From assembly GCA_050010555.1 (NCBI GenBank), contig JBEKKV010000002.1, forward strand, positions 47,815 through 111,814: a DNA stretch of 64,000 nt. Reading direction: 5' to 3'. Under the pieces are notes generated by a model, which was given only the letters and a program-made list of their open reading frames with translations, was not told the origin of the DNA and did not search any database. This document shows, piece after piece, positions 1 to 50,930 of the stretch; the stretch's first letter is position 1, and each line of letters starts with the position of its first letter. The stretch is from Dehalococcoidia bacterium (GTDB taxonomy: Bacteria > Chloroflexota > Dehalococcoidia > DSTF01 > JALHUB01). The translations under genes and the position numbers were made by a program.

Positions 1-821
1 CTCGATGTGTTGAGCGGCTGCGGGAGAACCTGCCAGAACTCGGGGGAACGCTCGCGGTCGATTCGACAGACATCAAGGCATGGGCTAACTGCGGGCATCA
101 CGACACCGATCCCGACGCTGGCACCGGCGCTAAGAAGAAGTCCGGCGGGACGCACTACTGGTATGGGTACAAGGTCCACACCGTCGTAGACGCTGACGCG
201 GAATTGCCCCTGTGGTTTTCGGTCACTGCGGCCAACACTTACGATGGCTCAATGCTTCCGCCCGTGCTAGAAGGCGCTCAGGCGCAATACGACTGGCTTA
301 GGCCGAAATACGTCACCGCAGACAAAGGCTACAACGCTCGGGCTTGCTTCGACTTTGTAGGCGAAGAGATGAAGGCGATTCCCGTTATCGACGTACAAAA
401 GCGCCAGTCGAAGGAAAGAGAAGGGCGGCCATGCGAAGCGAAGCCGATAGTGACACCGACCGGCCTTCATTGGCAATGCAACCGCCTTCCGTACGATCCG
501 GTTTGCCCTCGCTTCGGCAAATGCCCGCTCCTACCGATGTTCGCGGACGGTGAGTTGAACAAAAGCATCGGTGGCCGTTACTTCGAGCGCCATAGCCCGT
601 TTCCCTACGGCTCGTGCCAATGGAAGGCCATCTACAACAAGCGCGTGTCAGTGGAAAGAGTATTCAGCCGATTGAAGGGCTATCGGAAGCTAGACGCAAT
701 CAGGACGCGAGGGCTGCCGAAGGTATGGCTGCATGTAGCCTTAAGCTTACTCGCTATGAACGTTGCAGCCCTAGTCAACAGTGCTAATAGTGCAACGACG
801 CTGAGGAAATGCGTCGCGTAA
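1..821 (+). mobile_element. IS4/IS5-superfamily DDE transposase, 5'-truncated by the window edge. The reading frame is continuous from nt 3 through the listed 204..821 ORF.
   Basis: Manual translation from nt 3 gives ...DSTDIKAWANCGHHDTDPDAGTGAKKKSGGTHYWYGYKVHTVVDADAELPLWF... joined to the 204..821 ORF. The GYKxH...D and YNKRVSVERVFSRLK motifs are typical of DDE_Tnp_1 transposases. The listed 7..189 ORF is a different frame and is not the gene. Confidence 0.8.
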
Positions 822-849
822 CTATGGTATAATCTGACCGATAAACGAA

Positions 850-876
850 CCGCCTGTTGCTCGCAACAACAGGCGG
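850..876 (+). terminator. Stem-loop, 10-bp perfect stem (ccgcctgttg / caacaggcgg) with a 7-nt loop, just after the transposase stop. No U-tract follows. It could be an IS-terminal structure or a weak terminator.
   Basis: Inverted repeat read directly from the sequence. TATAAT at 832..837 lies just upstream. Confidence 0.3.
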
Positions 877-981
877 GAAGACCTCTCGCAAAGGCTGACC
901 TGAAGAGCTCCTCGCGCTCTTCGACAAGAGGGTACAGCCTAATGGTTGTCTCTGTCAAGCGCGAGAGGGGGGATTTAACCG

Positions 982-1410
982 ATGTTGACCCGAACTGACT
1001 GGCTTCTACGCTTCATTGCTGGCGCAGAAGGCTACGATGGTTGGATAGACCGTATTCGGATCATGAAAGGCATGTTCCTCTTTCAGGCTGAAGCGCCAGC
1101 GCCCCCAGAAGTGAATTACAGATTTCAACCATACGACTACGGCCCCTTCACCGCTGAGATATACCGAGACCTTGAGGCCCTGATCGAGAACGGCCATGTC
1201 CTTGATCTCCCTGGGGGTAAATCGTATCGGGCTACTCAGCAGGGCCGAGACCATCTGTCAAACCTGCAGTTTCCCCCTAAGCCATTGGAGGGCTTGATTA
1301 ACATGCGGGTTGAGGTCTCGGATTTGAACTTCCGCGACTTGCTCAAGCGAGTCTATTCTGCGCACCCCGAATCGGCTCGTAGGAGTGTTGCCAAGGATAT
1401 TCTGCATTGA
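982..1410 (+). CDS. Panacea-domain (DUF4065, PanA/SocA-like antitoxin-type) protein
   Basis: 142 aa. RIRIMKGMFLFQAE...NYRFQPYDYGPFTAEIYRDLEAL matches the Panacea pattern (KLxKLLYxA ... F.AW.YGPV.pElY). GC is lower than flanking genes. The stop overlaps the next start (TTGA). Confidence 0.5.
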   Translation: MLTRTDWLLRFIAGAEGYDGWIDRIRIMKGMFLFQAEAPAPPEVNYRFQPYDYGPFTAEIYRDLEALIENGHVLDLPGGKSYRATQQGRDHLSNLQFPPKPLEGLINMRVEVSDLNFRDLLKRVYSAHPESARRSVAKDILH

Positions 1411-2138
1411 CGATCGTCGTAGGGTTCTGTTGCGATGCAGGGCTTGTAATCGCTTCTGATAGCCAGATTTCCGCTGGTGCCACGCGGCGCTGGGGACAGA
1501 AGGTTTGGGCAGTACCCGCTCTAGGATTCACGTTCGGGCTTGCCGGGGCCGAGTCCACAATGCAGTTGCTTCAGGACTATCTTCTAAACGCCACCTTCGA
1601 TTCGACAGATGTAAACCTAGTTCGTCTCAAGATTACCGAGGCTGTGTCCGCCGTACTCAAACCTGAATATGATCGTGTGGCCTCACTCATCGCAGGAACA
1701 ACTGCCAGCAACTTGCCGCTAGGTGAAGCCCTCGTAGGGATTTACGTCGGGGGTCGGCCCCATCTCTTTGAACTCGCCGCTAACGGACTCGTGACAGATC
1801 ATCACGTAAGGAACTTCGCGGCTATTGGAGCGGGCAAGCCATTCGCCGAGCATGCCGCCACAATATTCCGAGACCTTCCAGCGGGCATGACTCTGCACCA
1901 GGCGAAGATGTTAGCCTTCCGAATGGTTCAGGATGCAATCGAGGCGGCAGGTCCAAACATACCTGTAGGCGGTCCTGTGCAGATGGCCTCAGTTTCACCT
2001 GGCCCTCCACCAACCCCTGTTCTACTCCAACCGGATGACCCTGCCCTGAAGGATGCTGTAGACGGTTGGATGGCGGCCGAGGCCATGAGGTTTCAGGAAC
2101 ACCTCCCGCCAGGGGAAGAACCCCCTCCGCCCTCCTAG
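1407..2138 (+). CDS. HslV/20S-proteasome-beta-like Ntn-hydrolase (N-terminal Thr peptidase fold) with a Pro-rich C-terminal extension
   Basis: MTIVVGFCCDAGLVIASDSQISAGATRRWGQKVW aligns with the HslV N-terminus ([33 protein letters not shown]), including Thr2 and Lys. AAIGAGKPFAEHAA matches the GSG..A motif. It has a TTG start in a 4-nt overlap with the upstream gene, and lower GC. Confidence 0.6.
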   Translation: MTIVVGFCCDAGLVIASDSQISAGATRRWGQKVWAVPALGFTFGLAGAESTMQLLQDYLLNATFDSTDVNLVRLKITEAVSAVLKPEYDRVASLIAGTTASNLPLGEALVGIYVGGRPHLFELAANGLVTDHHVRNFAAIGAGKPFAEHAATIFRDLPAGMTLHQAKMLAFRMVQDAIEAAGPNIPVGGPVQMASVSPGPPPTPVLLQPDDPALKDAVDGWMAAEAMRFQEHLPPGEEPPPPS

Positions 2139-2163
2139 CCGCCCAGGGTTTCGCAACAGGCTA

Positions 2164-2193
2164 TTGACTTCCTTACACGCTAGCGTGTAAGAT
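2164..2193 (+). promoter_or_regulatory. Sigma-70-like promoter (TTGACT, 18-nt spacer, TAAGAT) overlapped by a perfect 18-bp palindrome TTACACGCTAGCGTGTAA (2173..2190). Probable operator for the downstream HTH protein.
   Basis: The palindrome is its own reverse complement. It lies immediately upstream of the XRE-HTH gene. Confidence 0.5.
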
Positions 2194-2199
2194 GGCCGC

Positions 2200-2451
2200 A
2201 TGGCAAAGGGAAAGCGAAGGGCCGTTTGGAACGCTGGCCGCATCCACGGACTGCGGGACCACCTGGGCCTGACGCAGACGCAGATGGCGGAGGAGATGGG
2301 CACCCGCCAGCAGACGATAAGCGAGTGGGAGACGGGGCAGTACGAGCCGCGTGGGGCGTCCGCCCAGCTCCTGACGCTTATCGCCGAGCGGGTCGGCTTC
2401 GTCTACGAGGCGAAGGCCGGCGGGACCGTCGAAGAGGGACGCGAAGGCTAG
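2200..2451 (+). CDS. XRE-family helix-turn-helix transcriptional regulator (Cro/C1-type)
   Basis: LGLTQTQMAEEMGTRQQTISEWETGQYEPRGASAQLL is a classic HTH_XRE segment. 83 aa. Its stop overlaps the start of the next gene. Confidence 0.7.
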   Translation: MAKGKRRAVWNAGRIHGLRDHLGLTQTQMAEEMGTRQQTISEWETGQYEPRGASAQLLTLIAERVGFVYEAKAGGTVEEGREG

Positions 2452-2452
2452 G

Positions 2453-3892
2453 ATGCCGCTGCTTCTAGGGGAAAGACGGGCGGGCTACGACGCGGCGGGG
2501 GCGGAAGAGGCGTGTCCGGAAAAGGCGTCCGAAAGCGCTCTCCTCCTTGATTTCCCGGCCAGCGCGCCGCAGCTCCATGAAGAGGAGTTGGTGCGCCTCT
2601 GGGAAGGACAGCGCTTTCCCCGCGAGGCGCTGCGCCTCCGCGACGGGCAGGCCCTTCAGGTGGTCTATCGCGGCCGTCGCAACCTTTCCGCCGGCCCTGA
2701 CTTTCTGAGCGCACTCATCGCTGACGAGCGGGGCCGCCTGCTGAAAGGCGACGTAGAGTTGCACGTCCGCTCCAGCGCCTTCGTCTCCCACGGCCATCAC
2801 CTCGATCCGCGCTACGACAACCTCATCCTCCACGTGGTCTTCCACGATGACGTCGGCGCTCCCACATTGCTTCGCTGCGGCCGGCGCGTTGCCGTGGTCG
2901 CCCTGGCGCCCTGGGTGGCCCGCCGCGCCGAGGAGTTGCGGCTCTGGCTGGCGCAGCCTTCCTCCTGGTCCGAGCCCTGTCGCAGCGCGGTGGCCAGAAG
3001 CGGCTGGCCCGAGGTCAGGGGCCTCCTGGAACGGCTGGGGCAGATGCGTTTCCGCCAGAAACAGGCTCGCTTTGCCGCCGTTCTCCGACGACAGGGCGCT
3101 AATCAGACGCTCTACGAAGGCCTGCTCAAGGCGCTGGGCTACAGCCGGAACGAGGAGACCTTCTCCCGCCTGGCCCAGGCGTTCCCCTATGAAGAGCTGC
3201 GTCGCACCCTCGACCGCGAGGGGCAGACGGTGGCGGAGGCGCTCCTTTTTGGCCGGGCCGGCCTTCTCCCCAGCCAGCGCCGCCTGAAAGCAGCCGGCTC
3301 GCCCTACGTCTCGCGCCTGGAGGAGCTCTGGGCGCGGCGACGCTCGGAGCCGCCGGCGCCGGTGCTGTGGCAATTGAGCGGGCTTCGTCCCAACAACCTG
3401 CCTGCCCGCCGCCTGGCCGGCTTCGTGCGCCTTCTGTCGCGCTGGCCCAGCCTTGTCGCCGGCCTGTCCCTCCTGGAGGAAGCGGACTGCCTTCCCCTGT
3501 CGAAGCTGCTCGCCGCCTGGCAGGTGCCGGCGGATGGCTTCTGGCGCAATCATCACGACCTCTCGGAGGGGAGCGGTGCGCCGGCCGGAGCCCTCATCGG
3601 CCGCGGCAGGGCGCTGGAGATGCTCACAAACGTCGTGCTGCCGTTCGCCGCCGCCTGGGGAGAGGCCCGCTCCCTCGACGATCTCTCAAGACAGGCGCTG
3701 GCGGTCTTCCTGCGCCTGCCCTCGGCTGGCTCCTACAGCGGCACCCGCTTCTTGGAATCGAACTTCCGGCCGCTGTCCGGCCCAGACCATCGCGACGCCT
3801 GCCTCCAGCAGGGGCGCCTCTACCTCTACCGACAGTACTGTTCAGCCGGCGAGTGCACGGTCTGCCCCCTCTCCGCGCTGCACGCCGTGTGA
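2453..3892 (+). CDS. DUF2851 family protein
   Basis: The N-terminus EELVRLWEGQRF...DGQALQVVYRGRRNLSAGPDFLSALI...GDVELHVRSSAFVSHGHHLDPRYDNLILHVVFHDD matches the conserved DUF2851 signature (LxxIWQ...GPDF...VElH..sSDW..HgH..D..Y.NvILHVV). Confidence 0.65.
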   Translation: MPLLLGERRAGYDAAGAEEACPEKASESALLLDFPASAPQLHEEELVRLWEGQRFPREALRLRDGQALQVVYRGRRNLSAGPDFLSALIADERGRLLKGDVELHVRSSAFVSHGHHLDPRYDNLILHVVFHDDVGAPTLLRCGRRVAVVALAPWVARRAEELRLWLAQPSSWSEPCRSAVARSGWPEVRGLLERLGQMRFRQKQARFAAVLRRQGANQTLYEGLLKALGYSRNEETFSRLAQAFPYEELRRTLDREGQTVAEALLFGRAGLLPSQRRLKAAGSPYVSRLEELWARRRSEPPAPVLWQLSGLRPNNLPARRLAGFVRLLSRWPSLVAGLSLLEEADCLPLSKLLAAWQVPADGFWRNHHDLSEGSGAPAGALIGRGRALEMLTNVVLPFAAAWGEARSLDDLSRQALAVFLRLPSAGSYSGTRFLESNFRPLSGPDHRDACLQQGRLYLYRQYCSAGECTVCPLSALHAV

Positions 3893-3967
3893 GACGCCTG
3901 CTCCAGACCGGCCAGTCCGAAGCCGACGATTGAGGGGAGACGGGAGGAGGCGATGCCCGCCCGGCTT

Positions 3968-4984
3968 CTACGACTGCGGGAGGCCGAAGCCGCTGAGGAC
4001 GTCCTGCTCCAGGCCGGCCCTTTCGCCTCGTTGGAAGCGGAAGTAGCCGCAGGCCGCGACCATGGCGGCGTTGTCGGTACAGAGGACCGGCGGCGGCAGG
4101 CGGACGGGGACAGGGGCGCGCCGGACGAGGGCCTCACGCAGCGCCCTGTTGGCGGCCACGCCACCGGACACCACTATCTCCGTCACCCGCTCGTCGCGCG
4201 CCGCCCGCACGGTCTTGGCGACCAGCACGTCGACGACCGCATCCTGAAAGGCGGCGGCGATCTCTGCCCGTGGTAGATCCTCCTCGCCCTGTTCGCGAAC
4301 CACGCGCAAAACAGCGGTCTTCAGGCCGCTGAAGCTGAAATCGTAGCCACCGGCTAGCCAGGCCCGCGGCAGCCGCCAGCGCCGTCGCGCCTCCGCCGGC
4401 ACTCCCGCCGCCGCCCTCTCGACGGCCGGGCCGCCCGGAAAGCCCAGGTCGAGCAGTCGCGCCACCTTGTCGAACGCCTCGCCGGCGGCGTCGTCCCGCG
4501 TGCGACCGAGCAACCTGTAGCGACCGTGGTCGCTCATGACCAGCAGGTCGGTATGGCCGCCGGAGACGATGAGGGCGAGAAGCGGGAACTCCGGCGGCTC
4601 TCGCCCTGAGCCGGCGACGTCCAGCCAATTGGCGTAGATGTGCGCCTCGAGGTGGCTGACGCCCACGAGCGGCAGCCCGCGGGCGAAAGCGATCGCTTTG
4701 GCTGTGTTGAGACCCACCAGCAGCGAGCCCGACAGGCCGGGCCCGACGGTCACGGCGATGGCCGCGAGGTCGCTCCAGGCGCAGCCCGCCTCGGAAAGGG
4801 CCTCCTCGACGACGGGCAGCAGGCTCTCGAGGTGCTTTCGCGACGCCATCTCCGGCACCACGCCGCCGTAGCGGGCGTGCAGGCTCACCTGAGAAGCGAT
4901 GACGCTGCTAACGATGCGCCGGCCGTCCTCGACGACGGCGGCTGCGGACTCGTCGCAGGAGGACTCGATGCCCAGGATATTCAT
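3968..4984 (-). CDS. tsaD: tRNA N6-adenosine threonylcarbamoyltransferase TsaD
   Basis: [18 protein letters not shown]...[18 protein letters not shown] is the Kae1/TsaD family N-terminus. 338 aa. Confidence 0.9.
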
Positions 4985-4995
4985 CGACTGCGTCT

Positions 4996-7089
4996 TCAGG
5001 GGTTGGCGTCTTGCGGGCCGGGCGCGGACGGAAGGCCGGCGACGAAGAGGGAATCGCCGTTCAGAACGTAGATGCGGGCGGTCACCTCGTCCACCGCCAC
5101 CGCCTGCGGGTCGGTCAGTTGGCTGCTGACGAACTGGCGCTCGAAGCGACCGTCGCCGCTAAAGAGGACGATGCGCTTGTTGCCGCGGTCCACCACCATC
5201 AGACTACCGTCGGACAGGGGCAGCAGCGAAGCGGCGGAGGTGAGCGGCCTGTCCAGCCCCGCCATGTCGAAGGCCACCTCCTGGCCGGCGGAGAAGCGGC
5301 GGATCTTTCCGTCTTCGCCGAGGACGTAGATATCGCCGTTCACGGCCAATCCGATCGCGCTGGAGAAGTCCGACCCTTCGATCGAGGCGGTTGGCTCCCG
5401 CGCCGTGCCGTCTTCGCCCGCCGGATAGTGCCATACCTGGCCGCTCTGCTTGTCGAGGGCGTAGAGGCCGTCGTCGCCGGCGTAGAGGCTGTCCAGAGAG
5501 CGCCACTCGCCGTCGCCGCCCAACGACAGCGGCCGCGGCTCCGCGTTGGGGCTCAGAGAGAACAGATGGTTGTCGCTATCGAGGACGAGCAGGCTGCCGC
5601 CGTTCGGATCGGGCAACCAGGTGATCTGGACGGGTTTTGCCGCCTTTATCATTCCGACCAGGTCGCCCTCGTTGAGCACTTCTTTCGTTTCGCCTTCCGG
5701 GTCGGTCAGCTTGACGGAGACGACGCGGTTTTTCTTGCCGTCGAGAAGATAGGCTTGCCCACCGCCGACGACAAGCTGCTGGAGCGCGAGATCGCCGGTG
5801 AGCTGCGTCTTCAAGTCGGCGACGGGCCGCAGGTCTGCCAGCTCCTGGACGCCGTTCATGGTCGCGACGGCCCCGGCCACTTCACTCTTCAGGCTGAGAA
5901 GCCCGACATCGGCGGCGCGAATGCCTTCGGCCTGGGCCAGGCTGCTGCTCGCCTCGTTGAGGAGGCGGCGCTGCTCCGACGGGTCGGAGGTGGAAACCGA
6001 GGCGTTGTAGTCGTTTCTCGCCGTTGTCATCAGGGAATCGAACTTCTGGTCGCGCGTGCCCTGGATCGAGCTGGGCATCACCCACCAGGCGAGCAGCCCG
6101 ATAACAACAAGAAGAAGAACACCCGGCAGCAGCCAGACGGGGAGGCGCTTCGTGAGGCGGCTGACCGGCGCCGGGCCGTTGTGACGAAGCCCGGGTTGGG
6201 AGGCCCGCAGCCGGACGGTCTGCCTGCCGGGCGCCGGCGCGCTGACGGCCACCGGCGCCAGCTCCAGCGGCGAGAGCAGGTGGAAGTCGGTCTGGCTGTC
6301 CTCTTCGTATGGAGCAGGCTCGCGACGGAGAGAGGACGGCGGAGCCACGGCGGGTGTCGGGGAGACGGCGACCGGCGGCGCTGCTTCCGCGGGCAGGCCG
6401 CTCGGCGTGGTTTCTCGCTCGACCGCCGTCTCCTCGGCCTCGAAGCAGGTCAGCAGGAAGACGGAGAAGTCCGGCTGGTCGCGGGTAAGGAGGTAGAGCT
6501 CGGAGAGCGCCTCTTCCGCATCCAGCGCCAGCAGCGTACGGATGTGGTCTTCATCGACGACCTCCGTCAGCGCCGGCGAGGCGACGAGAAGAAGATCGCC
6601 GGGCGAGAGCTCGTAGCGACGCAGTTGTGGTCGCAACTCGTCACCGAGGCCGAGAGCGACGCTTGCCGCGGGGTCTTCGGCGACGAGGCGGGTAACCGAG
6701 CCCTCATGACGGAAGTAGGCCAGGCTGGGCCCGGCCTGGGCGAGATAAGCGACCGTCCCGCGAACGACAAGACAACTCAGGCCCGCGCCCACCTGGTGCT
6801 CGCGGAGGCTGCGGCGGTTCCAGTCGCGCAGGTTCTCGTGGGCGGCGCTTATTGCCTTCGTCAGGGCGCCGGTTATAGAGAGGTTCTGGCGCTCGAAGAG
6901 GTGGCCGACGACGGCGACGAGCTGGCCGCAGAACTCCTCGCTACCGGGAAGGGCGGGCTGCGCCAGGACGTAGAGGTCGATAGGTTCTTCGCCGGAGGGT
7001 TGGAGGCTGAACTTCCCTTGCCAGGGTCCGGCTTGCTGCGCCTGACCCCGCACGATGCCGAACTGCCCCACCCACGTCCTGACAGCCAT
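4996..7089 (-). CDS. Multidomain protein: N-terminal PPM/PP2C-like (possibly degenerate) phosphatase domain, a Pro/Ala-rich linker, one TM helix, and a C-terminal NHL-type beta-propeller
   Basis: N-terminal ...[10 protein letters not shown]...DLYVLAQ...[24 protein letters not shown]...[11 protein letters not shown] is PP2C-like. The TM is [23 protein letters not shown]-terminal repeats are [12 protein letters not shown] / [14 protein letters not shown]. Confidence 0.45.
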
Positions 7090-7891: not shown

Positions 7892-8950
7892 TTGCTCGTG
7901 GACGACCTCCTTCACTCTCGCGTCCGGCCGTTCTCCGTCGGCTGTCCAATGACTGCGGCGCAGTTTCTCGACGCGATGGGCGGCACGGCGTTTCAGGCGC
8001 GGAACCTGGCCGAAGCCGCACGCATCTGGTCGCGCATGCTCGAGGACGACGTCGTGATCATGTTCGGGCTGGCCGGCGCGATGGTGCCGGGAGGAATGCG
8101 GAAGGTTATCGCCTACCTGATTGAGAACCGCATGATCGACGTTCTCGTCAGCACCGGCGCGAACCTGTTTCACGACGTGTACGAGACGCTGGGCAAGCCG
8201 CACTACCAGGGCAGCGCCGAATCCGATGATCAGGAGTTGGGCCGGCGGCGAATAAACCGTTTCTATGACGTGCTGGCCCCCGAGGCCGATTTCTCCGCCG
8301 CCGAAGAGTTCATCACCCAGTTCTCGTTCACGCTCGACGGCTCGCGACCCTACAGCACGCGTGAGTACTTCCAGCGACTCGGCGAGGCTCTCCTGCCGGT
8401 GGCGCAAGAGGAGGGTATTCTTACCGCCGCCGCCCGGCGCGGCCTGCCGGTCTATTCGCCTGCCCTCGGCGATAGCGTTCACGGCCTGGCGATCGCCGTC
8501 GGACGTGTCCGCAGCGCCCGCTCGGGCCAGAAGTCTCTGCCCGTCCTCTTCGACATCATCGGCGACGTGCTGGAGACCGCGCATATCGCAGCGACGGCGC
8601 CGGCAACCGGCGTCATCTACGTCGGCGGTGGGACGCCGAAGAACTTCATCCAGCAGGCGGAGGTCGGCGGCTACATCTTCCGGCGGGAGCTTCCCGGCCA
8701 CAAGTACGCGATCCAGGTTACTATGGACCAGCCGCAATGGGGCGGCCTCTCCGGCTGCACGTTCGAAGAGGCGCAGTCGTGGCGGAAGATCGCGGCGGAC
8801 GCGACGATGGCGACCGTGAACGTGGAGGCGACCGTCGCGCTGCCGCTCATCGTGAGCGCGCTGGCCGAGAGCAGTTCGGGAATCATCGAAAAGCGCCGTC
8901 CGCCGGCGATCAGCTTCGACGGCATGCTCGGCGCCTTGCGCGAAGGCTGA
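7892..8950 (+). CDS. Deoxyhypusine synthase-like protein (DHS/homospermidine-synthase family)
   Basis: It has the DHS-family Rossmann-like layout. Motifs include VLVSTGANLFHD and VGGGTPKNF. The true start may be the internal Met at about 7949. Confidence 0.6.
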   Translation: MLVDDLLHSRVRPFSVGCPMTAAQFLDAMGGTAFQARNLAEAARIWSRMLEDDVVIMFGLAGAMVPGGMRKVIAYLIENRMIDVLVSTGANLFHDVYETLGKPHYQGSAESDDQELGRRRINRFYDVLAPEADFSAAEEFITQFSFTLDGSRPYSTREYFQRLGEALLPVAQEEGILTAAARRGLPVYSPALGDSVHGLAIAVGRVRSARSGQKSLPVLFDIIGDVLETAHIAATAPATGVIYVGGGTPKNFIQQAEVGGYIFRRELPGHKYAIQVTMDQPQWGGLSGCTFEEAQSWRKIAADATMATVNVEATVALPLIVSALAESSSGIIEKRRPPAISFDGMLGALREG

Positions 8951-8958
8951 GCGCGACG

Positions 8959-9843
8959 ATGCGGAAGGATCTGTTCTACCCGCCGTTCGGCTTCCTCGCG
9001 CCCCAGGCCGAACTCACCGCTTTCGAGACCGCCCGCGTCGTCGTGCTGCCGGTGCCGTACGACGCGACGACGACGGCCCGCGCCGGCGCCCGCAACGGTC
9101 CTGCCGCCATCATCCACGCCTCGCAGGACCTGGAGCCGTACGATCTGACGCTCGGCTTCGACACCACGCAGGACGGCATCCACACTCTGCCGGAGTTGGC
9201 GCCCCATAGCGGCAGCCCGCAGGCGATGGTCGACCGGGTCGAAGCGGCGGTTGGCGACCTCCTGGCGGCGGGCAAGTTCGTCGTCACGCTGGGCGGCGAG
9301 CACACCGTTGCGGTCGGCGCCGTGCGCGCCCATGCCCGTCGCTATCCCGACCTCTCGGTGCTAGCCATCGACGCCCACGCCGACTTGCGCGACGAATACC
9401 TGGACTCGCCCTACAACCACGCCTGCGTACTGCGGCGCGTCCTCGAGACTTGTCCCGTCGTCATGGTGGGCATGCGGAGCGTAAGCGCCGACCAGGTCGA
9501 GTTCATCCGCGAGCGCGACCTTACGTTCCTAACCCCAGTGGCCTATCGCGCGCTTCCCGGTCCTGTAGAATTGCTGCGGCGCCTGTCGTCGAACGTCTAT
9601 GTAGACATCGATCTGGACGGCCTCGACCCGGCGCAGATGGCGGCGGTGGGGACGCCGGAGCCGGGCGGCCTTTTCTGGGATGAAGTGATTGCACTTCTGA
9701 CTGGGCTGGCGGCGGCGAAACGGATTGTCGGCTGCGACCTGACCGAGCTGGCGCCGGACCTGGGCCCGCCGGCCTGCGCGACGCTGGCGGCGAGGCTGGT
9801 CCAGCGCCTGATCGGCCTGGCGCTGGGACCGCCGGCTAAGTGA
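8959..9843 (+). CDS. speB: Agmatinase (ureohydrolase family)
   Basis: Manganese-site motifs are present: LGGEHTV, AIDAHADLRDEY, YVDIDLDGLDPA...GTPEPGG. The start is taken at MRKDLFYPPFG rather than the longer 8737 ORF. Confidence 0.75.
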   Translation: MRKDLFYPPFGFLAPQAELTAFETARVVVLPVPYDATTTARAGARNGPAAIIHASQDLEPYDLTLGFDTTQDGIHTLPELAPHSGSPQAMVDRVEAAVGDLLAAGKFVVTLGGEHTVAVGAVRAHARRYPDLSVLAIDAHADLRDEYLDSPYNHACVLRRVLETCPVVMVGMRSVSADQVEFIRERDLTFLTPVAYRALPGPVELLRRLSSNVYVDIDLDGLDPAQMAAVGTPEPGGLFWDEVIALLTGLAAAKRIVGCDLTELAPDLGPPACATLAARLVQRLIGLALGPPAK

Positions 9844-39442: not shown

Positions 39443-41020
39443 TCAAGGGATTCCGCCGGCAATGAGCGCGGGCGGTTCCTCCCGCGAGGCGGAATGTTCC
39501 AGCAACGGCGTCGGCGTTGGAAACGGCTTCGCCGCCGGCTCCCGGAAAGCCGCCATCTGCACCTCCAGCCAGCGATTGATGTCGTGGCGAGCAATTGTCT
39601 GGCGTGACGCCCGCGCCCGCTGCCGACGCTCGTCCGCGTCCATCAGCAGCGCGCGCCGCAGCGCTTCCGCCGTCCCTTCGATGTCCGCAGCCTCGACCGT
39701 CAGCGCGGCGCCGGCAAGCTCCTGCGCCGCTCCCACCGCGGTCGAAAGGATGACGACGCCGTCGCGCTCGTTCAGGATCGGCCCTTCTTTAACGACAAGG
39801 TTCATGCCGTCGGCGATTGAGTTGGCGATGAGCACGTCGTACAGGCTGAGGCCGGCCAGCGCCTGCGTCCGGTTCTGCTCGAAGAAGAGCGTTATCGGCC
39901 GCCACCGCCCGTTGCCGTGGCGCAGATTGATCTCGTCGATGAGCGCGAAGACCTCGTCCCGGTACTGGCGGTACTCGGGGATCGCCTCCCGCGTCGGCAC
40001 GAGGAACGCGAGCATCTGCACCCTTCCCGCCCACTCGCGGGAACGCTCCAGAAACAGGTTGAACGCCTTAAGCGCGCCGGCGATGTTCTTGGCCGGGTCC
40101 AGCCGGTCAACGCAGACGACGGTCTTCACGTCCGGATCGCTGGCCAGCGCCTGCTGGTATGACCTGGTCTCCGGCGAGACGAGCTTTCGTCGCAGGTCGA
40201 ACACGTCCACCGATATCGGATTGGCGAAGATTGCGACCGACCGCCCACCGTAGCGGACCGCCGTCTCCGCCAGGTCGACGCCCGCGCCGGGAAGGTACGT
40301 CAGGCAGGTGAGCGCGAAGTTGCGCTTTGATTCCTCCGTCTGGAACGCTACGCTGTCGTTCGCGAGCATCCCCTCGCAGATCCGCGCGACGATGCCCTCT
40401 GGAAGCGCGCGCCAAGCGTTCGGCCCCGGCCAGGGGATGTGGTTGAAGTGCTGCAGCAGCGCGTCAGGGTGCCGCATGCGGATAAACAGCGGCGCCAGAT
40501 AGAGATGATAGTCATGGAGCATCACCCGGGCCGGGCCGCTCGTCGCGCCGATCTCCTCGTCGACGGCGTCGGCGAAGGCGCGGTTGACCGGCACGTAGCC
40601 TTCCTCCCAGGAGCGCGCGATCTGCTCCGGCAGGTTTGGACGGTCTTCGAGGAGATGCCAGAGCGAGTGCTGGAGGAACCAGAGGATCGGGTTGCTGAAG
40701 GTGCGATAGAAAAGATCGTATGAGTGCGAGTCTGTCGCTGCCAAACACAGGCGGTGGCCATCGCCGAATGAGAAGCGGCGCATATTGTGCGCCACCAGTT
40801 CCCTGTCCACGCCACCAACGGCGCCGACGATCCATGTCAGTTCCTGGCGCCCCAGGATGCTGGAAAGGGCGACCGCCACGCCGCCGCTCGTCGGGCGACG
40901 CGCCAAGGCAGCGCTATCGTCTCGATAGTGCTCGAATGGACCGCGATTGCTGACGATGATGAGCGGGCCCGGTCGGCCGATCCGCCGCAAAGGGGCATAT
41001 GCTGGGTCCCCGGAGTTCAC
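39443..41020 (-). CDS. otsA: Alpha,alpha-trehalose-phosphate synthase family (GT20)
   Basis: LIIVSNRGPF... Resembles the GT20 family throughout. 525 aa. Confidence 0.7.
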   Translation of the reverse strand: MNSGDPAYAPLRRIGRPGPLIIVSNRGPFEHYRDDSAALARRPTSGGVAVALSSILGRQELTWIVGAVGGVDRELVAHNMRRFSFGDGHRLCLAATDSHSYDLFYRTFSNPILWFLQHSLWHLLEDRPNLPEQIARSWEEGYVPVNRAFADAVDEEIGATSGPARVMLHDYHLYLAPLFIRMRHPDALLQHFNHIPWPGPNAWRALPEGIVARICEGMLANDSVAFQTEESKRNFALTCLTYLPGAGVDLAETAVRYGGRSVAIFANPISVDVFDLRRKLVSPETRSYQQALASDPDVKTVVCVDRLDPAKNIAGALKAFNLFLERSREWAGRVQMLAFLVPTREAIPEYRQYRDEVFALIDEINLRHGNGRWRPITLFFEQNRTQALAGLSLYDVLIANSIADGMNLVVKEGPILNERDGVVILSTAVGAAQELAGAALTVEAADIEGTAEALRRALLMDADERRQRARASRQTIARHDINRWLEVQMAAFREPAAKPFPTPTPLLEHSASREEPPALIAGGIP

Positions 41021-41112: not shown

Positions 41113-41150
41113 CAAAAAGGCCGGAGGACCTTGGCTCCGGCCGTCTTGTT
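41113..41150 (-). terminator. Rho-independent terminator on the minus strand: stem GGCCGGAG / CTCCGGCC followed by TTTTTGT. It lies about 240 nt downstream of the hemL stop.
   Basis: Read on the minus strand: GGCCGGAGCCAAGGTCCTCCGGCCTTTTTGT. Confidence 0.5.
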
Positions 41151-41385
41151 TGGAACCAGCCCTCTTTCAGTGGCCTACGAGGTTAGCTGTCGGGTTAGGG
41201 CTGAAAGAGACTACCCCCTCGCCCAAGGCGAGTACACCCCATGCTGCCTTCGGTTCCCCCGTCCCGCCTCTCGCCGCTGGCGAGTCGCCTCTGGCGACAG
41301 GCGAGCTAGGCCCTGTGCTCGTAAATTAGCACCGCGAGGAGCGTTTGTCAACTCTTTCACGTTCTGGGAAGCTACCGCTGGCAGG

Positions 41386-43484: not shown

Positions 43485-44468
43485 CTACGATCTGGATTCG
43501 CGGAGCCAGCGGGCGGCGTCCTTGGCGTGATACGTAATAGTGATGTCGGCGCCGGCCCGCTTGATCGCCGTCAGCACCTCGAGCACGACGCGCTTCTCGT
43601 CGAGCCAGCCGTTCGCCGACGCCGCTTTTATCATAGCGTACTCGCCGCTGACGTTATAGGCGGCGAGCGGCAGGTCGAAACGCTGGCGGGCGCGCGCCAG
43701 GACGTCCAGGTAGGCGAGCGCCGGCTTCACCATCACGATGTCGGCGCCCTCGGCGATGTCGCTCTCGATCTCGCGCAGCGCCTCGCGGGCGTTCGCCGGG
43801 TCCATCTGGTAGCCGCAGCGGTCGCCGAACTGGGGCATCGACTCCGCAGCCTCGCGGAAGGGGCCGTAGAAGGCGGATGCGTACTTCGCGGCATAGGCCA
43901 TAATCGGCGTCTGCGCGAAGCCGCCCTCGTCGAGCGCCCGGCGGATGGCGGCTACCTGGCCGTCCATCATCGCCGACGGGGCGACCATGCCGGCGCCGGC
44001 CCGGGCGTGCGAGAGCGCCGTCCTGGCGAGCAGCGGCAGCGTCGCGTCGTTATCGACGTCGCCGTCACGCACGATGCCGCAGTGGCCGTGGCTGGTGTAC
44101 TCGCAGAGACAGACGTCGGTGATGACGAGGAGCTCCGGGTCGGCCTGCTTGAGAGCGCGCACCGCCTGCTGGACGATGCCGTCCGGCGCGTATGCCTCCG
44201 ACGCCTGGTCATCCTTCGACGCCGGTATGCCGAAGAGAAGGACGGCGGGAATGCCGAGATCGCGTAGCTCCCGGGCCTCGCCGGGAAGCTGATCGACGGA
44301 GAGCTGCGCCTGGCCGGGCATAGACGGGATGGCGTTGCGGACGCCGCTGCCGTGCACCACGAACAGCGGGTAGACGAAGTCCCCTGGCGACAGCCTTGTC
44401 TCCCGCACGAGCCGCCTGAGCGCCTCCGTCCGTCTCAACCGCCTCAGCCTACGAATTGTGAGATTCAT
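43485..44468 (-). CDS. hemB: Porphobilinogen synthase (delta-aminolevulinic acid dehydratase)
   Basis: ...[29 protein letters not shown]... and the active-site Lys region. Confidence 0.9.
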
Positions 44469-45205
44469 TTCACTCCTGGCTGAAGCACCGGCAGAAGCTG
44501 TTCCATTCCCGCGTGGACTTCGCGCGAAACTTGATCAGAGAGCGAGACTAAGCTCCATGCCATTTCCTGACAATCTTCGGCCGTCAACTGTATCACCTCT
44601 CCCACTTTCCAAACCCGTACTTCCTGCTCGAACTGCAGGGCTAGTTCTTGCCCCTTCTCCAGCCGCTGACCGACCGACACGACGGGTTGGCCGTCGGCCG
44701 TTAAGACGATCTTCTGCCATGTCACGCTGAAGACACTATTGGCGTCAACGTCCTCAGCTCCTACCTTACCATTCCGATGCATGAGACAGTTGCGCAACCT
44801 GTAAAGATCGTTGAACCATAAGAGACTCGGCAGCGCGTCGGCCTGACCGCCGACAGCAGCCAACGCCCTGTCTACGGCTATCCTAGGCCCGGACCGCACG
44901 ACCTTTCGGCATCTCTCCAGGGCCGTTTGGAATTCCTCCCAAGGAAGAAGTTTCCCAGATGCGCCCTTGGCTAGCGTCGCCATGAATAGGAGCTGTGCGA
45001 AGTAGTCTTCGGCGGCAGCAATCATCGAGAGCAGCGAGTAACGGGCGCAATATGACCCAAATTCCCGCCATGTTTCGGCATCAGGGACGTCACCGAAGTT
45101 CATAAGGACCTCTGCCGAAGGCAAGGCTGTTGTGGTAGGAAGCTTCGAGAATCGTTCTGCTAACACCGCGTAGGCGGCTGATCGCTCCAGATTCGATCGA
45201 AGCAC
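44465..45205 (-). CDS. Hypothetical protein with a putative HEPN-like Rx4H motif ([13 protein letters not shown]). It is inserted between cobA/hemD and hemB and has lower GC.
   Basis: 246 aa. Its stop overlaps hemB by 4 nt. GC is visibly lower (parts near 45-55%) than neighbours. An alpha-helical N-half ends in RNxxxH. The C-half is beta-rich. Confidence 0.4.
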
Positions 45206-45243
45206 TGCTTGATGCCCTCTGAGTTGCTCGCTCAGGTTAACCC

Positions 45244-46794
45244 TTATGCACTTGGCCCATGTTGAAATGCCTTTGACGTCGGGCTCGAGAGCGCCAGTAG
45301 TAGTCCGTCGATGGTGTGCTCGGGTGCTTCCACGTCCACGCGCAGGCCCGCGCGACGCGCTGTCGCCGCCGTCACCGGACCGATGCAGGCGATCAGTGGC
45401 TTCTCCAACAGCGCCTTGTCGCCGTCCAGGATCTTCAGCAGGTTGCGCACCGCCGACGAACTGGCAAACGTCACGATATCCACCTCGCCGGCGCGCAGTC
45501 GGGCCATCGCTTCGGCGTCGACATCTTTCGGCACGGCGGCGCTGTACAGCGGCAACTCGTCGACCGTCGCGCCCAGCCGCTCCAGCCCGGTGACCAGCGC
45601 TCGACGGGCGCCGCGGGCCCGTGGCCAGAGCACGCGCTGCCCCATTATACCGCGCTCCGCCAGCGCCTCGACGACGCCCTCCGCCAGAAAGCGCTCCGGC
45701 ACGAGGTCGGCGTGAACTCCGTGGCGGTTGAGCGCTATCGCCGTCGCGGGGCCGATGGCGCAGACGCGGGCGCGACCCAGCGCGCGGGCGTCCTTCTTGT
45801 GACGGCGCAGCTCGTCGAAGAACATGTCGACGCCGTTGGCGCTGCTGAAGACGAGCCAGTCGTATTCGCCGGCGTCGAGGCCTTCGAGTGAGCGGCGCAG
45901 CGCTTTCTGGTCGATGCGCGGGACGATCTCGATCGCGGGTAATTCTATTGGCTCCGCGCCCGCCTCGGCCAAGGCGTGCGAGAGGACTCCCGCCTGCTCA
46001 GCAGCGCGGGTCACGAGGACGCGCTTGCCGAAGAGGGGACGGTTGTCGAACCAGCGAAGCTTGTCGCGCAGGCGAACGACCGGTCCGACGATGGTGACCA
46101 GCGGCGGCTCGAGGCCGGCCTCGGCGACGCGCTTCGCCAAATCGGAAATGGTTGCCGCGATTACTGCCTGATTTGGCGTGGTTCCCCAGCGTACAACGGC
46201 GGCCGGCTCATCCGGCGATCGGCCGCATTCGGAGATAAGTCTCATGATCTCGCCCAGATTCGAGCCGCCCATCAAGATAACCAGCGTATCGGCGCTTTTC
46301 GCTACGCGCTGCCAATCTACCGCGCCTTCCGCCTTGTCGGGGTCCTTGTGTCCCGTCACCACCGTGAACGACGACGACAGGCCGCGATGCGTGACTGGAA
46401 TGCCGGCGTAGGCCGTCGCCGCGATAGCCGATGACACGCCGGGGACCACCTCGAACGGAATGCCGGCGTCCGCGAGCGCCTCCGCCTCCTCGCCGCCACG
46501 TCCGAACACGAACGGGTCGCCGCCCTTGAGCCGAACCACCCGTTTGCCCTCGCGCGCCTTCGCGACGAGTAGATTGTTTATCTGCTGCTGGCTGAAGCCG
46601 GAGCCGCCTTTTTCGGATGGGTGCTTGCCGACGAATATGCGCTCCGCCTTCGCGGGGGCCAGGTCGACGAGGCGGCGGCTGACCAGGCGGTCGTAGACGA
46701 CCGCCTCCGCGCGTGCCAGCGCATCGACGCCCGCGACCGTTATCAGTCCCGGGTCGCCGGGTCCCGCGCCGACAAGCCAGACACGTCCGTTCAA
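45244..46794 (-). CDS. cobA: Bifunctional uroporphyrinogen-III C-methyltransferase / uroporphyrinogen-III synthase
   Basis: N-terminal VWLVGAGPGDPGLITVAG...LKGGDPFVFGRGGEE (SUMT). A C-terminal HemD-like domain. Confidence 0.85.
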   Translation of the reverse strand: MNGRVWLVGAGPGDPGLITVAGVDALARAEAVVYDRLVSRRLVDLAPAKAERIFVGKHPSEKGGSGFSQQQINNLLVAKAREGKRVVRLKGGDPFVFGRGGEEAEALADAGIPFEVVPGVSSAIAATAYAGIPVTHRGLSSSFTVVTGHKDPDKAEGAVDWQRVAKSADTLVILMGGSNLGEIMRLISECGRSPDEPAAVVRWGTTPNQAVIAATISDLAKRVAEAGLEPPLVTIVGPVVRLRDKLRWFDNRPLFGKRVLVTRAAEQAGVLSHALAEAGAEPIELPAIEIVPRIDQKALRRSLEGLDAGEYDWLVFSSANGVDMFFDELRRHKKDARALGRARVCAIGPATAIALNRHGVHADLVPERFLAEGVVEALAERGIMGQRVLWPRARGARRALVTGLERLGATVDELPLYSAAVPKDVDAEAMARLRAGEVDIVTFASSSAVRNLLKILDGDKALLEKPLIACIGPVTAATARRAGLRVDVEAPEHTIDGLLLALSSPTSKAFQHGPSA

Positions 46795-49069: not shown

Positions 49070-49711
49070 TCATGCCTTGAGTTGCGCCCCGGCGCCCAGC
49101 GACGCCAGCAGCCTCGCCCGCGCCTCGTCGAAGCGCCCGTCGGCGATGAGCTCCAGCAGACGGGCGTCGATGCTTCGCTGCCACGCCTCTGCCGCCACCG
49201 TGACGAAGCGCTCGCGCAGCTCGACCCGCACGTCGGCGAGAAGCTGTGCCAGCCGCTCGAAGTCCTCCGAGACGTAGGTCTCCAACTCCTGCCGCAGCCA
49301 GCGGGCCAGCGCCGGGCTGAGACCGCCTGTAGATATGGCGAGAACGACGTCGCCGCGGCGAATGACCGATGGCACGATGAAGTCGCATAGCGCCGGCTGG
49401 TCGACGACGTTTACGAAGACGCCGCTCCGGCGCGCATCCAGCGCCACCCGCTCGTTTGTCGCTGCGTCGTCCGTTGCCGCGATGACGACGGTGTATCCTT
49501 TCAGATCGCCGCTCTGATACTGCCTTGCGGTGTGCTGGATGCGCCTCTCCGCCTTGAGCCTGTCTATGCCAGGGTCGAGCTCGGAGCTGACGACGTTGAC
49601 GGAAGCGCCTGCGGCCAGCAGCCCCTCGACCTTCCGCGCCGCCACCTGCCCGCCGCCCACGACAAGGCAGCGTCGCCCTTTCATCTCCAGGAACAGCGGA
49701 TAGTAACCCAT
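49070..49711 (-). CDS. sirC: Precorrin-2 dehydrogenase / sirohydrochlorin ferrochelatase (CysG N-terminal-like, SirC/Met8 type)
   Basis: MKGRRCLVVGGGQVAARKVEGLLAAGASVNVVS is the NAD-binding motif. Confidence 0.8.
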   Translation of the reverse strand: MGYYPLFLEMKGRRCLVVGGGQVAARKVEGLLAAGASVNVVSSELDPGIDRLKAERRIQHTARQYQSGDLKGYTVVIAATDDAATNERVALDARRSGVFVNVVDQPALCDFIVPSVIRRGDVVLAISTGGLSPALARWLRQELETYVSEDFERLAQLLADVRVELRERFVTVAAEAWQRSIDARLLELIADGRFDEARARLLASLGAGAQLKA

Positions 49712-49715
49712 CGCG

Positions 49716-50930
49716 CTACAGCCCCGCCTGGGCTGTCGCCTCTTCCGGCGCCATGTTCAGCTCGGCGTCCGTCATGTAGCAGGCGGGGTCCTCCATCCAG
49801 AAGTCGCCGAAATAGGACTCGGCGCGCGCTCGCAGATTGCCGTTGCAAATATCGAAATAGCCGCAGCGGGCGCAGCGGCCCTTAACCCGACCGCGACGGT
49901 GCCTGAGCGCGGCAAGAACGGGGTCGCTTTCGTCCGTCCATATCTCGCTGAAAGGGCGCTCGCGGACGTTACCGAAGGTGTGACTGCCGCTGAACTGGTC
50001 GGCGTGCACGTTCCCCAGCGGGTCGATGTTGCCGATGGCGATCCCCGACTGGTTGCCGCCCTGCCAGCGCAGCATCTGGAGCACCTCGTCGCCGCGCTGC
50101 GGCTCCATCTCGCGCACAGTCTGATAGAGGTAGACGGCGTCGGTGTGGTTGTCGACGGTAAGAACGTCCTTCGTGTTGCCGCGCTGGGCGAGGTCCAGCG
50201 TTCGGGCGAAAATGAGGTCGACGGCGGCGCGCGTCTCGGCGTGCGACAAGTCGAACTTGACGATCTTGTCGCCGCGGCCGGCGTAAGCCAGGTGATAAAA
50301 GCAGACGCGCGGAATGTCCTCGCTCTCAACGATATCGAAGATGTCTTTCAGATGCGCGTAGCTGAACTGCGTGAGGGTTACGCGCAGGCCCACGCGCAGC
50401 CCGACCTCCTTGCAATTGCGGATGCCCTGCATTGCCTCCTCGAAAGCGCCGACCATGCCCCGAAAGCGATCGTGGACCGGCGGCGGCCCGTCGATGCTGA
50501 CGCCGACGTACGAAACACCCAGCTTCTTCATCTCCTCTGCGACCTCGTGAATCAGCAGCGTGCCGTTTGTCGAGAGAACGCTGCGGATTCCCCGCATCTG
50601 CGCCCGCTCGACGAGCTCCGGCAGGTCGGGTCGTAGCAGGGGCTCGCCGCCGCTGAACAGGATGACCGGCACGCCGAACGCCGCGAGGTCGTCGATGACC
50701 GCCTTTGCCTCCTCCGTTGTCAGCTCGCCTTCAAAAGCGCGGTCGAAAGAGTCGCTGTAGCAATGGGCGCAGTGCAGGTTGCAGCGCCGCGTCACGTTCC
50801 AGGCGATAACCGGCTTCTTGTCCTGCGAGTAGTGCAGCAGATGCGGCGGCAACTCGCCGGAAAGCCGTCCGAAGCGCAACGCGTCGCCGGGCGTGACGGT
50901 CCCGCACAAGAGCCTTGTAACCCCTAGCAT
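49716..50930 (-). CDS. Radical SAM/SPASM-domain protein, AhbD/NirJ-like (siroheme-dependent heme or heme d1 maturation)
   Basis: CNLHCAHCYS (CxxxCxxC) and a C-terminal SPASM cysteine cluster (CARCGYFDICNG). Located beside sirC and the hem genes. Confidence 0.65.
   Translation of the reverse strand: MLGVTRLLCGTVTPGDALRFGRLSGELPPHLLHYSQDKKPVIAWNVTRRCNLHCAHCYSDSFDRAFEGELTTEEAKAVIDDLAAFGVPVILFSGGEPLLRPDLPELVERAQMRGIRSVLSTNGTLLIHEVAEEMKKLGVSYVGVSIDGPPPVHDRFRGMVGAFEEAMQGIRNCKEVGLRVGLRVTLTQFSYAHLKDIFDIVESEDIPRVCFYHLAYAGRGDKIVKFDLSHAETRAAVDLIFARTLDLAQRGNTKDVLTVDNHTDAVYLYQTVREMEPQRGDEVLQMLRWQGGNQSGIAIGNIDPLGNVHADQFSGSHTFGNVRERPFSEIWTDESDPVLAALRHRRGRVKGRCARCGYFDICNGNLRARAESYFGDFWMEDPACYMTDAELNMAPEEATAQAGL

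Follow-up and report, generated by a model that had tools for sequence, protein, structure and literature searches.

A variable single-gene slot between hemD and hemB in Chloroflexota carries alleles of an undescribed protein family with a conserved HEPN-type motif

HEPN proteins are built from two α-hairpins; helices 2 and 3 are often separated by an insert, helix 2 carries an acidic residue, and Csx1 has a β-hairpin immediately behind the motif (Anantharaman et al., 2013, PMC3710099). The anti-phage protein RAZR, also called PD-T7-4, combines a zinc ribbon with a DUF4145 HEPN RNase (Nature 2026, PMC13017515). Hotspots flanked by core genes are known as well, among them the core defence hotspots of Pseudomonas aeruginosa (PMC10250203) and hotspots of horizontal gene transfer (HGT) (PMC5635113). 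HEPN-type conflict genes and core-gene-flanked HGT hotspots are therefore already known kinds (PMC3710099, PMC10250203, PMC5635113).

We analysed a window of 64,000 nucleotides from a Dehalococcoidia bacterium, in which a gene of foreign composition, here called X, lies within the heme biosynthesis operon. Compared with the HEPN superfamily RNases (PMC3710099), and especially with their stand-alone Abi-type and toxin members, the X family matches no described family significantly, whether by sequence or by profile (Pfam clan CL0291 and the later HEPN_* models). Its predicted long β-hairpin insert comes right after the motif, an arrangement that PMC3710099 describes only for Csx1. The family also has near-invariant Cys, Gly-x-Val and Asp residues beside the motif, and X has no MNT, antitoxin or CARF partner. 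Unlike RAZR, X has no zinc ribbon or Cys4 pattern, and PF13643 matches none of 61 family members. Proteins found in the same slot of two related genomes (L002 and L003, below) do have both PF13643 and a Cys4 zinc ribbon, yet match no PADLOC model. The HEPN-MNT type II/VII pairs (SO_3166/SO_3165, PDB 5yep) differ in that X has no nucleotidyltransferase neighbour and is twice the size.

With the core-gene-flanked hotspots the hemD-hemB slot shares fixed conserved flanks, cargo that differs among relatives and is atypical in composition, turnover in the absence of a slot integrase, and signs of flank-mediated recombination. It differs from them in being a single-gene gap inside an essential biosynthetic operon, co-directional and apparently translationally coupled, rather than an intergenic island. 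It differs further in that one family recurs in it as very old alleles and in that its cargo has no PADLOC match. The one-gene slot inside an essential operon and the very old alleles of one family at one locus appear to be new; a search of the literature on HEPN together with hemB returned only irrelevant papers.

Gene X within the heme operon

The minus strand between 41.4 and 49.0 kb of the window carries hemA, hemC, a cobA/hemD fusion, X, hemB, a HAD hydrolase gene and hemL, and a radical-SAM/SPASM gene and a siroheme-synthase N-domain gene lie upstream of the cluster. An earlier note on this DNA had stated that every gene of the cluster is recognisable except X, and our analysis confirmed the assignments of hemA, hemC, cobA/hemD, hemB, the HAD hydrolase gene and hemL. 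The features at and around X are as follows.

43485..44468, minus strand: hemB (ALAD), the conserved right flank and apparent right recombination anchor
44465..44468, minus strand: ATGA overlap of the X stop codon (TGA, 44465-44467) and the hemB start codon (ATG, 44466-44468)
44465..45205, minus strand: gene X between hemD and hemB, 246 aa, first canonical start GTG (from the list of open reading frames)
45206..45253, minus strand: in-frame extension upstream of the X GTG, 16 codons without a canonical start codon, aligning with P0001 (a relative of X, 80% identical) and other family members
45244..45260, minus strand: region with the ATG (45258-45260) that corresponds to the L001 start codon and lies in a different frame from X (from DNA alignment)
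45244..46794, minus strand: cobA/hemD fusion, the conserved left flank and apparent left recombination anchor (from tblastn and Pfam context)

X has a GC content of 56.4% and a GC3 of 61.9%, against 65-71% and 81-89%, respectively, in the six flanking genes, so the earlier observation that X is AT-richer than its neighbours holds. Only 2.3% of 741-bp segments of the 64-kb sequence are equally AT-rich, and most of these fall within an IS-associated stretch at ~200-1100. The reported overlap of the X stop with hemB is likewise present, as ATGA, which suggests translational coupling of the two genes. The X allele of locus L060 has a comparable stop/start overlap and abuts both its neighbours, a NUDIX gene and hemB. 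No promoter-like or terminator-like sites were predicted on the minus strand from hemA to hemL.

The GTG is probably not the ancestral start of X. The 16 codons upstream of it correspond to the conserved N-terminus of the family and the beginning of helix 1 (pLDDT 93-98 in the model described below), and comparison of 11 of them with L001, which carries an 81%-identical homologue, gave five synonymous and no non-synonymous differences. The L001 allele has an ATG start overlapping the hemD 3' end. One extra A at 45244/45245 shifts the homologous ATG of the window (45258-45260) out of the X frame, the hemD stop region reading TAA-GGG in the window and TAG-GG in L001. The extra A would reflect an assembly indel or else a genuine recent frameshift that the GTG rescues; because the 11 compared codons carry synonymous changes only, the shift is either very recent or an assembly error. 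A DNA pattern scan for a second, independent assembly covering the putative frameshift site gave no match.

The same region raises the question of whether X in the window is a decaying pseudogene, the frameshifted remnant of a once-functional cassette. Such decay would account for an ancestral ATG left out of frame and for a GTG start that drops 16 conserved N-terminal residues, ~10 of them in helix 1. We nevertheless consider it very unlikely, since the remaining reading frame is intact over 246 codons, the GTG with AGAGGG 8 nt upstream is available as a start, and the compared upstream codons have changed only synonymously. A JGI metagenome contig also matches positions 43752-44907 with 100% identity. 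The dN/dS between X and P0001, the L001 allele, is 0.26, and X is therefore a protein-coding gene under purifying selection.

The X family and its predicted fold

X contains the R-x4-H reported earlier, as RNCLMH, with R138 at 44792-44794 and H143 at 44777-44779 (numbering of the called reading frame; with the 16 upstream codons included, R138, H143 and D152 become R154, H159 and D168).

44750..44794, minus strand: signature codons of the X family, R138-N-C-L-M-H143-R-N-G-K-V-G-A-E-D152, a putative HEPN active-site motif

A lone Rx4H is weak evidence, because it occurs in 12% of shuffles of the X protein (RNx3H in 0.3%). The motif of X is raised above chance by its conservation across the family, where 119 of 122 aligned members have the R and 120 the H, at a spacing of exactly x4. 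The whole signature, R-N-C-L-x-H-R-x-G-x-V-x3-D, is kept in 93-98% of the 122 members, the remaining counts being C 114, second R 114, G 118, V 114 and D 118; N follows the first R in 91 of the 122. In extended numbering, C156, H159 and D168 are each kept in 93-98% of members. The near-invariant Cys, Asp and Gly beside the His are not standard HEPN features and could mean metal or cofactor binding.

An exhaustive HMMER search of 1.84 billion cluster representatives gave 224 family representatives at E<=1e-3, 76 at <=1e-10 and 19 at <=1e-30. Members are mostly 255-290 aa long and match end to end, and the clusters that we looked up are small (1-6 members) and mostly metagenomic. A word-indexed search of 5.8 billion proteins with X returned one relative, P0001, at 80% identity, and the same search with the family profile only two. 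X itself has no match in Pfam, NCBIfam or PADLOC, and no family member scored above threshold against the curated families of Pfam, NCBIfam, PADLOC and PHROGs. Relatives of X were also absent from a scan of genome and metagenome contigs, and tblastn against phage and plasmid collections found no homologue. At the sequence level, these comparisons establish X as a constrained member of a protein family that is undescribed, diverges fast and conserves a HEPN-type motif. The family is recognised by no library and appears to be new.

A match to the protein kinase BTK among PDB sequences was rejected as a local chance resemblance. The family stretch RNCLvHRgGiV..D resembles the kinase stretch 'ARNCLV..G.VKVSDFG' locally (E 0.002-0.01), and the predicted fold is a helical bundle rather than a kinase fold.

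AlphaFold (AF2) modelling of X with 61 family members gave a pLDDT of 95 and a pTM of 0.91 (pLDDT 35 when the alignment held two sequences). The model comprises a helix at residues 7-36, a second at 59-98, a helical insert at 105-119 and 123-133, a helix at 144-158 with R154..H159 at its C-terminal end, a long β-hairpin (174-186 and 204-216) after the motif, and a final helix at 225-253. Helix 2 carries E82, which is E or D in 80 of the 122 members. The model thus fits each HEPN point of PMC3710099 considered here, namely the motif at the end of helix 3, the insert between helices 2 and 3, and the acidic residue in helix 2. X has the Rx4-6H of the HEPN superfamily and, as predicted by the AF2 model, its arrangement of helices.

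Matches of the 61 members to HEPN profiles stayed below threshold: RTasHEPN in five members (best 0.0017), RiboL-PSP-HEPN at 0.027, and single-member matches to Csm6 at 8.7e-4 (PADLOC), 0.031 (Pfam) and 0.0067 (TIGR). A Foldseek comparison of the model with PDB and BFVD gave nothing usable. Alignment of the family with a 25-sequence DUF4145 alignment by hhalign gave a probability of 0.65%, and a two-sequence comparison was likewise negative.

The hedged proposal of the earlier note that X is a HEPN-type RNase is supported, and it survived both conditions that the note had named as refuting it. It is favoured by the motif and by the modelled four-helix bundle, whose HEPN-type helices emerged from the structure prediction that the note had suggested as a check, and it is not favoured by the profile searches, in which no HEPN or Abi family was significant. 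On the model, the core of X likely adopts the HEPN fold, and with that fold X would be an RNase. It is unlikely that X is instead a helical bundle of another kind, with an Rx4H that serves another kind of site, for example a metal site made of Cys, His and Asp, or a protein-protein interface. Such a protein would still be mobile cargo but would not cleave RNA.

Exchange of cargo at the hemD-hemB junction

The genomes most closely related to the window are MAGs from the Chloroflexota that bear the label Chloroflexia or Dehalococcoidia, and their hemD is 88-93% identical to that of the window. Their hemD-hemB gap holds a UbiE-type methyltransferase gene of native GC3, then a different GC3-poor gene. 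The slot contents are listed below, with percentages giving amino-acid identity to the X of the 64-kb sequence.

64-kb sequence: X alone, without the methyltransferase
L001: X allele (81%), followed by a fusion of a hemB 5' fragment with a second hemD tail and, after it, a 202-aa reading frame
L054: X allele (45%)
L057, L058, L059: methyltransferase and X allele (34%)
L070: methyltransferase remnant and X allele (38%)
L060, L061: NUDIX and X allele (29%), hemD only 53% identical
L002, L003: methyltransferase, Cys4 zinc ribbon and DUF4145 (PF13643, E 1e-10), the RAZR architecture
L004: methyltransferase and retropepsin-like aspartyl protease
L018 (more distant): HTH-ImmA/IrrE (Peptidase_M78) and DUF4411, gap GC 50% against 61% for the locus
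most other Dehalococcoidia: empty slot, hemD directly next to hemB

The slot therefore occurs in five cargo states: X alleles, zinc ribbon-DUF4145, aspartyl protease, ImmA/IrrE with DUF4411, and empty. Slot cargo has a GC3 of 57-70%, against 80-96% in the flanks, and the methyltransferase and NUDIX genes look native. No PADLOC defence-effector model matched the X family, the zinc ribbon-DUF4145 proteins or the aspartyl protease, and the only PADLOC matches of slot proteins were generic methyltransferase and NUDIX similarities. Defence cargo is suggested by the RAZR-like architecture and the ImmA/IrrE-DUF4411 pair. The few hemD-hemB gaps seen outside the Chloroflexota hold plausibly metabolic genes, for TusA/DsrE, a radical SAM enzyme and a PNPOx-like protein. 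Comparison of these gene orders establishes the hemD-hemB junction as a small variable slot in this Dehalococcoidia-type Chloroflexota lineage.

The X alleles have diverged far more than the genes around them. Among the 64-kb sequence, L001, L054, L057, L070 and L060 the alleles are 29-81% identical, against 76-94% for hemB at the loci where most of hemB could be compared. Between L057 and L070, hemD is 91% and hemB 94% identical, whereas the X alleles are 40% identical and their dS is 3.2 (saturated), compared with 0.28 in hemB. The DUF4145 gene behaves similarly between L002 and L003, with a dS of 2.8, the methyltransferase and hemB genes beside it having 0.26-0.28. At the gene borders, the drop in identity and its recovery each take no more than a few tens of bases.

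44448..45298, minus strand: exchanged 'cassette', X with the last ~18 hemD codons (tail ...ALSSPTSKAFQHGPSA), delimited by blastn

The homology detected by blastn to L002, L003, L004, L057 and L070 stops at 44416-44447 on the hemB side and restarts at 45290-45305 on the hemD side, and hemB identity to relatives is back to 82-97% within ~30 nt of the hemB start. DNA homology is lost across the cassette against five of seven relatives; that of L001 continues throughout and that of L054 reaches into the cassette. The GC dip coincides with the cassette (44448..45298), and the variant tail of the last 18 hemD codons is common to the 64-kb sequence and L001 only.

Several loci retain apparent scars. 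Behind the X cassette of L001 come the first ~16 hemB codons, joined to a second, diverged hemD 3' end, then the 202-aa reading frame and the real hemB. The 202-aa product has hydrophobic N- and C-terminal stretches and, by eye, an LPGTG motif, and has no Pfam match. A ~110-nt pseudo-copy of the hemD 3' end follows the methyltransferase gene or its remnant in L002, L003, L004, L057 and L070. The L001 and pseudo-hemD scars look like the expected remains of one-sided, homology-anchored insertions. In a neighbour-joining (NJ) tree the alleles from the hem slot are spread over three or more separate deep branches, among members from other contexts, a placement that is weak evidence because the tree is star-like.

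No integrase was found in the hemD-hemB slot. An integron gene cassette was considered and rejected, as the slot has no suitable repeats or attC and only two weak long-range inverted repeats. The hemD stop and the X start are 38 nt apart and the X stop overlaps hemB, which leaves no room for an attC. Taken together, the breakpoints and scars establish, from sequence comparison, an exchange of cargo via homology in the flanking hemD and hemB genes.

Defence cargo or heme accessory factor

Away from the hem operon, family members occur in varied neighbourhoods. P0046 lies between integrase fragments near a DUF3987 protein, P0034 adjoins a ThsB-like TIR protein, P0065 adjoins an FRG-domain protein, and P0039 lies between a dipeptidase gene and a SnoaL-like gene with a GC3 of 40% against 70-76%. 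At the five slot loci readable on both sides, the X alleles lie between hemB and either hemD, methyltransferase or NUDIX, L001 being an exception in that extra DNA separates X from hemB. The family looks single-gene, because no partner gene recurs. A HEPN-MNT toxin-antitoxin pair was rejected, there being neither an adjacent nucleotidyltransferase nor a recurrent partner.

A functional tie to hemB or tetrapyrroles is the main rival to defence-type cargo. X might be an accessory factor of the hem operon, either an RNase or RNA-binding protein that tunes hem mRNA around hemB, or a sensor or chaperone of heme, tetrapyrroles or metal acting through the Cys-x2-His...Asp pattern, whose conservation is not standard for HEPN proteins. 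This would suit the position of six independent alleles immediately upstream of hemB on the same strand, which repeats in lineages down to 53% hemD identity, as well as the stop/start codon overlaps in the 64-kb sequence and L060 and the lack of a predicted promoter or terminator of its own for X inside the operon. An accessory role is nonetheless distinctly unlikely, given that unrelated genes replace X in sister genomes whose hemB is 90-94% identical and that the slot is empty in most Dehalococcoidia. The alleles are saturated in dS, against ~0.3 in the flanks, their GC3 is foreign in every host, and the family is also found away from hem genes, in neighbourhoods of mobile-element or defence-like character. 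X does not combine an orthologue in relatives, native codon composition and flank-like divergence, as a core component of the hem operon would.

The comparison with relatives that the earlier note had proposed thus came out in favour of its insertion idea, close relatives carrying divergent alleles, unrelated cargo or nothing, with all cargo GC3-poor. Of its two suggestions, a recent insertion or a regulatory RNase, the first holds in that X is swap-in cargo, although in a recurrent slot and not as a one-off event; an RNase tied to tetrapyrrole metabolism is less supported.

We favour the reading that X is horizontally exchanged cargo and a new HEPN-like, defence-type RNase rather than a heme enzyme, with a probability of roughly 0.55. 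A defence-type RNase is probable because the slot is swapped with different conflict-type genes in related Chloroflexota. X would be a stand-alone protein of ~260 aa whose core is a HEPN-type four-helix bundle with helical and β-hairpin inserts. By analogy with other HEPN proteins, it would dimerise and so form a composite Arg/His site for metal-independent RNA cleavage. It would be transcribed with the hem operon, translationally coupled to hemB, and would stay latent until a trigger such as a phage or other mobile element. Once activated, X may halt growth or act by abortive infection, like HEPN defences that consist of one gene. The comparison of loci shows old, deeply diverged X alleles and unrelated conflict-type genes taking each other's place by recombination at the conserved hemD 3' and hemB 5' ends.

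More speculatively, the hemD-hemB junction of soil Chloroflexota could be a dedicated locus for single-gene 'immune cassettes'. Ancient allelic lineages of the X family, together with other effectors, would be maintained by balancing or diversifying selection and shuffled by homologous recombination via the flanks, the operon would provide constitutive expression and protection from deletion, and RNA cleavage might be coupled to tetrapyrrole or hemB status. We regard this extension as possible but tentative.

If the family of X, which current annotation libraries miss, is an active HEPN RNase, it adds a new candidate single-gene defence or abortive-infection effector from the Chloroflexota, a phylum almost unexplored for immunity. 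Variable conflict-type cargo can hide as one-gene slots in housekeeping operons, where scans for defence islands between operons would miss it. Alleles that differ by 60-70% between genomes with flanks that differ by <10% would offer a natural panel for the drivers of effector diversification.

Methyltransferase and pseudo-hemD copies at the hemD-hemB junction

The junction between hemD and hemB at window 44448-45298 contains no UbiE/COQ5-type methyltransferase; the closest relatives (loci L002, L003, L004 and L057) carry this gene, 213 aa long and of native GC3, between hemD and the variable gene. In the relative L070 the methyltransferase is reduced to a 40-aa remnant, and no copy was found elsewhere within the 64-kb window.

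Pseudo-copies of the hemD 3' end, 50-110 nt long, lie 3' of the methyltransferase or its remnant in L002, L003, L004, L057 and L070. In L001, which carries an allele of X (the putative HEPN-like ORF of the window), the pseudo-copy lies downstream of X and a hemB 5' fragment.

Pseudo-copies of the hemD 3' end
L001 1320-1366
L002 8159-8232
L003 8166-8232
L004 ~8160-8320
L057 9883-9934
L070 ~2700-2850

The true hemD end of L057, comprising the tail and a hairpin, is present in the L002 copy after the methyltransferase. The pseudo-hemD copies are scars of successive homology-anchored insertions. A conserved hairpin (GCCGAGA-N7-TCTCGGC) directly follows the hemD stop codon in L057 (~9196-9230) and L070, and sits 3' of the pseudo-hemD tail in L002 (~8200-8260); it may act in attenuation or as a site of RNA processing.

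In L018, a locus from a more distant Dehalococcoidia MAG, the hemD-hemB gap (3414-5091; GC 50% vs 61% for the locus) holds one gene for an HTH plus Peptidase_M78 (ImmA/IrrE) protein and another for a DUF4411 protein (E 1.5e-36); the two look like a toxin-antitoxin or defence-like pair.

Kinase resemblance of the X family

Positions 116-190 of the X-family profile (X residues 130-175) match Tec-family tyrosine kinases, BTK among them, in the region of the catalytic loop (E 0.002-0.01), with the family motif RNCLvHRgGiV..D resembling the kinase motif ARNCLV..G.VKVSDFG. Because the other kinase motifs are absent and the fold is helical, we rejected a tyrosine kinase identity and regard the match as a local chance resemblance.

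The wider window

A second AT-rich region (GC 53-55%), possibly a further module of mobile or conflict type, occupies window 200-2451.

204-821, DDE transposase fragment (PF01609)
982-1410, 142-aa ORF without a family, overlapping the next ORF by 4 nt
1407-2138, proteasome/Ntn-like ORF, 243 aa (PF00227, E 2.5e-6)
2200-2451, 83-aa ORF, putative HTH protein, judged by eye

Between hemL and a glycosyltransferase-20 gene (39443-41020, trehalose-6-phosphate synthase-like) lie two RNA elements, a placement that suggests c-di-AMP control of this osmoprotectant gene.

41157-41292 (-), c-di-AMP (ydaO-type) riboswitch (61.7 bits, E 7e-12)
41119-41142, terminator-like hairpin following the riboswitch

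The 1156-bp contig L071 (Ga0439233_0131176, JGI metagenome 3300040942) is 100% identical to window 43752-44907, and the window's strain has therefore also been sampled in that metagenome.

Two genes, together at window 49070-50930 (-), lie immediately upstream of hemA.

Radical-SAM/SPASM protein, AhbD/NirJ-like by domain content
Siroheme-synthase N-domain gene, precorrin-2 dehydrogenase-like

Their presence there hints that the organism makes heme by the alternative, siroheme-dependent route.
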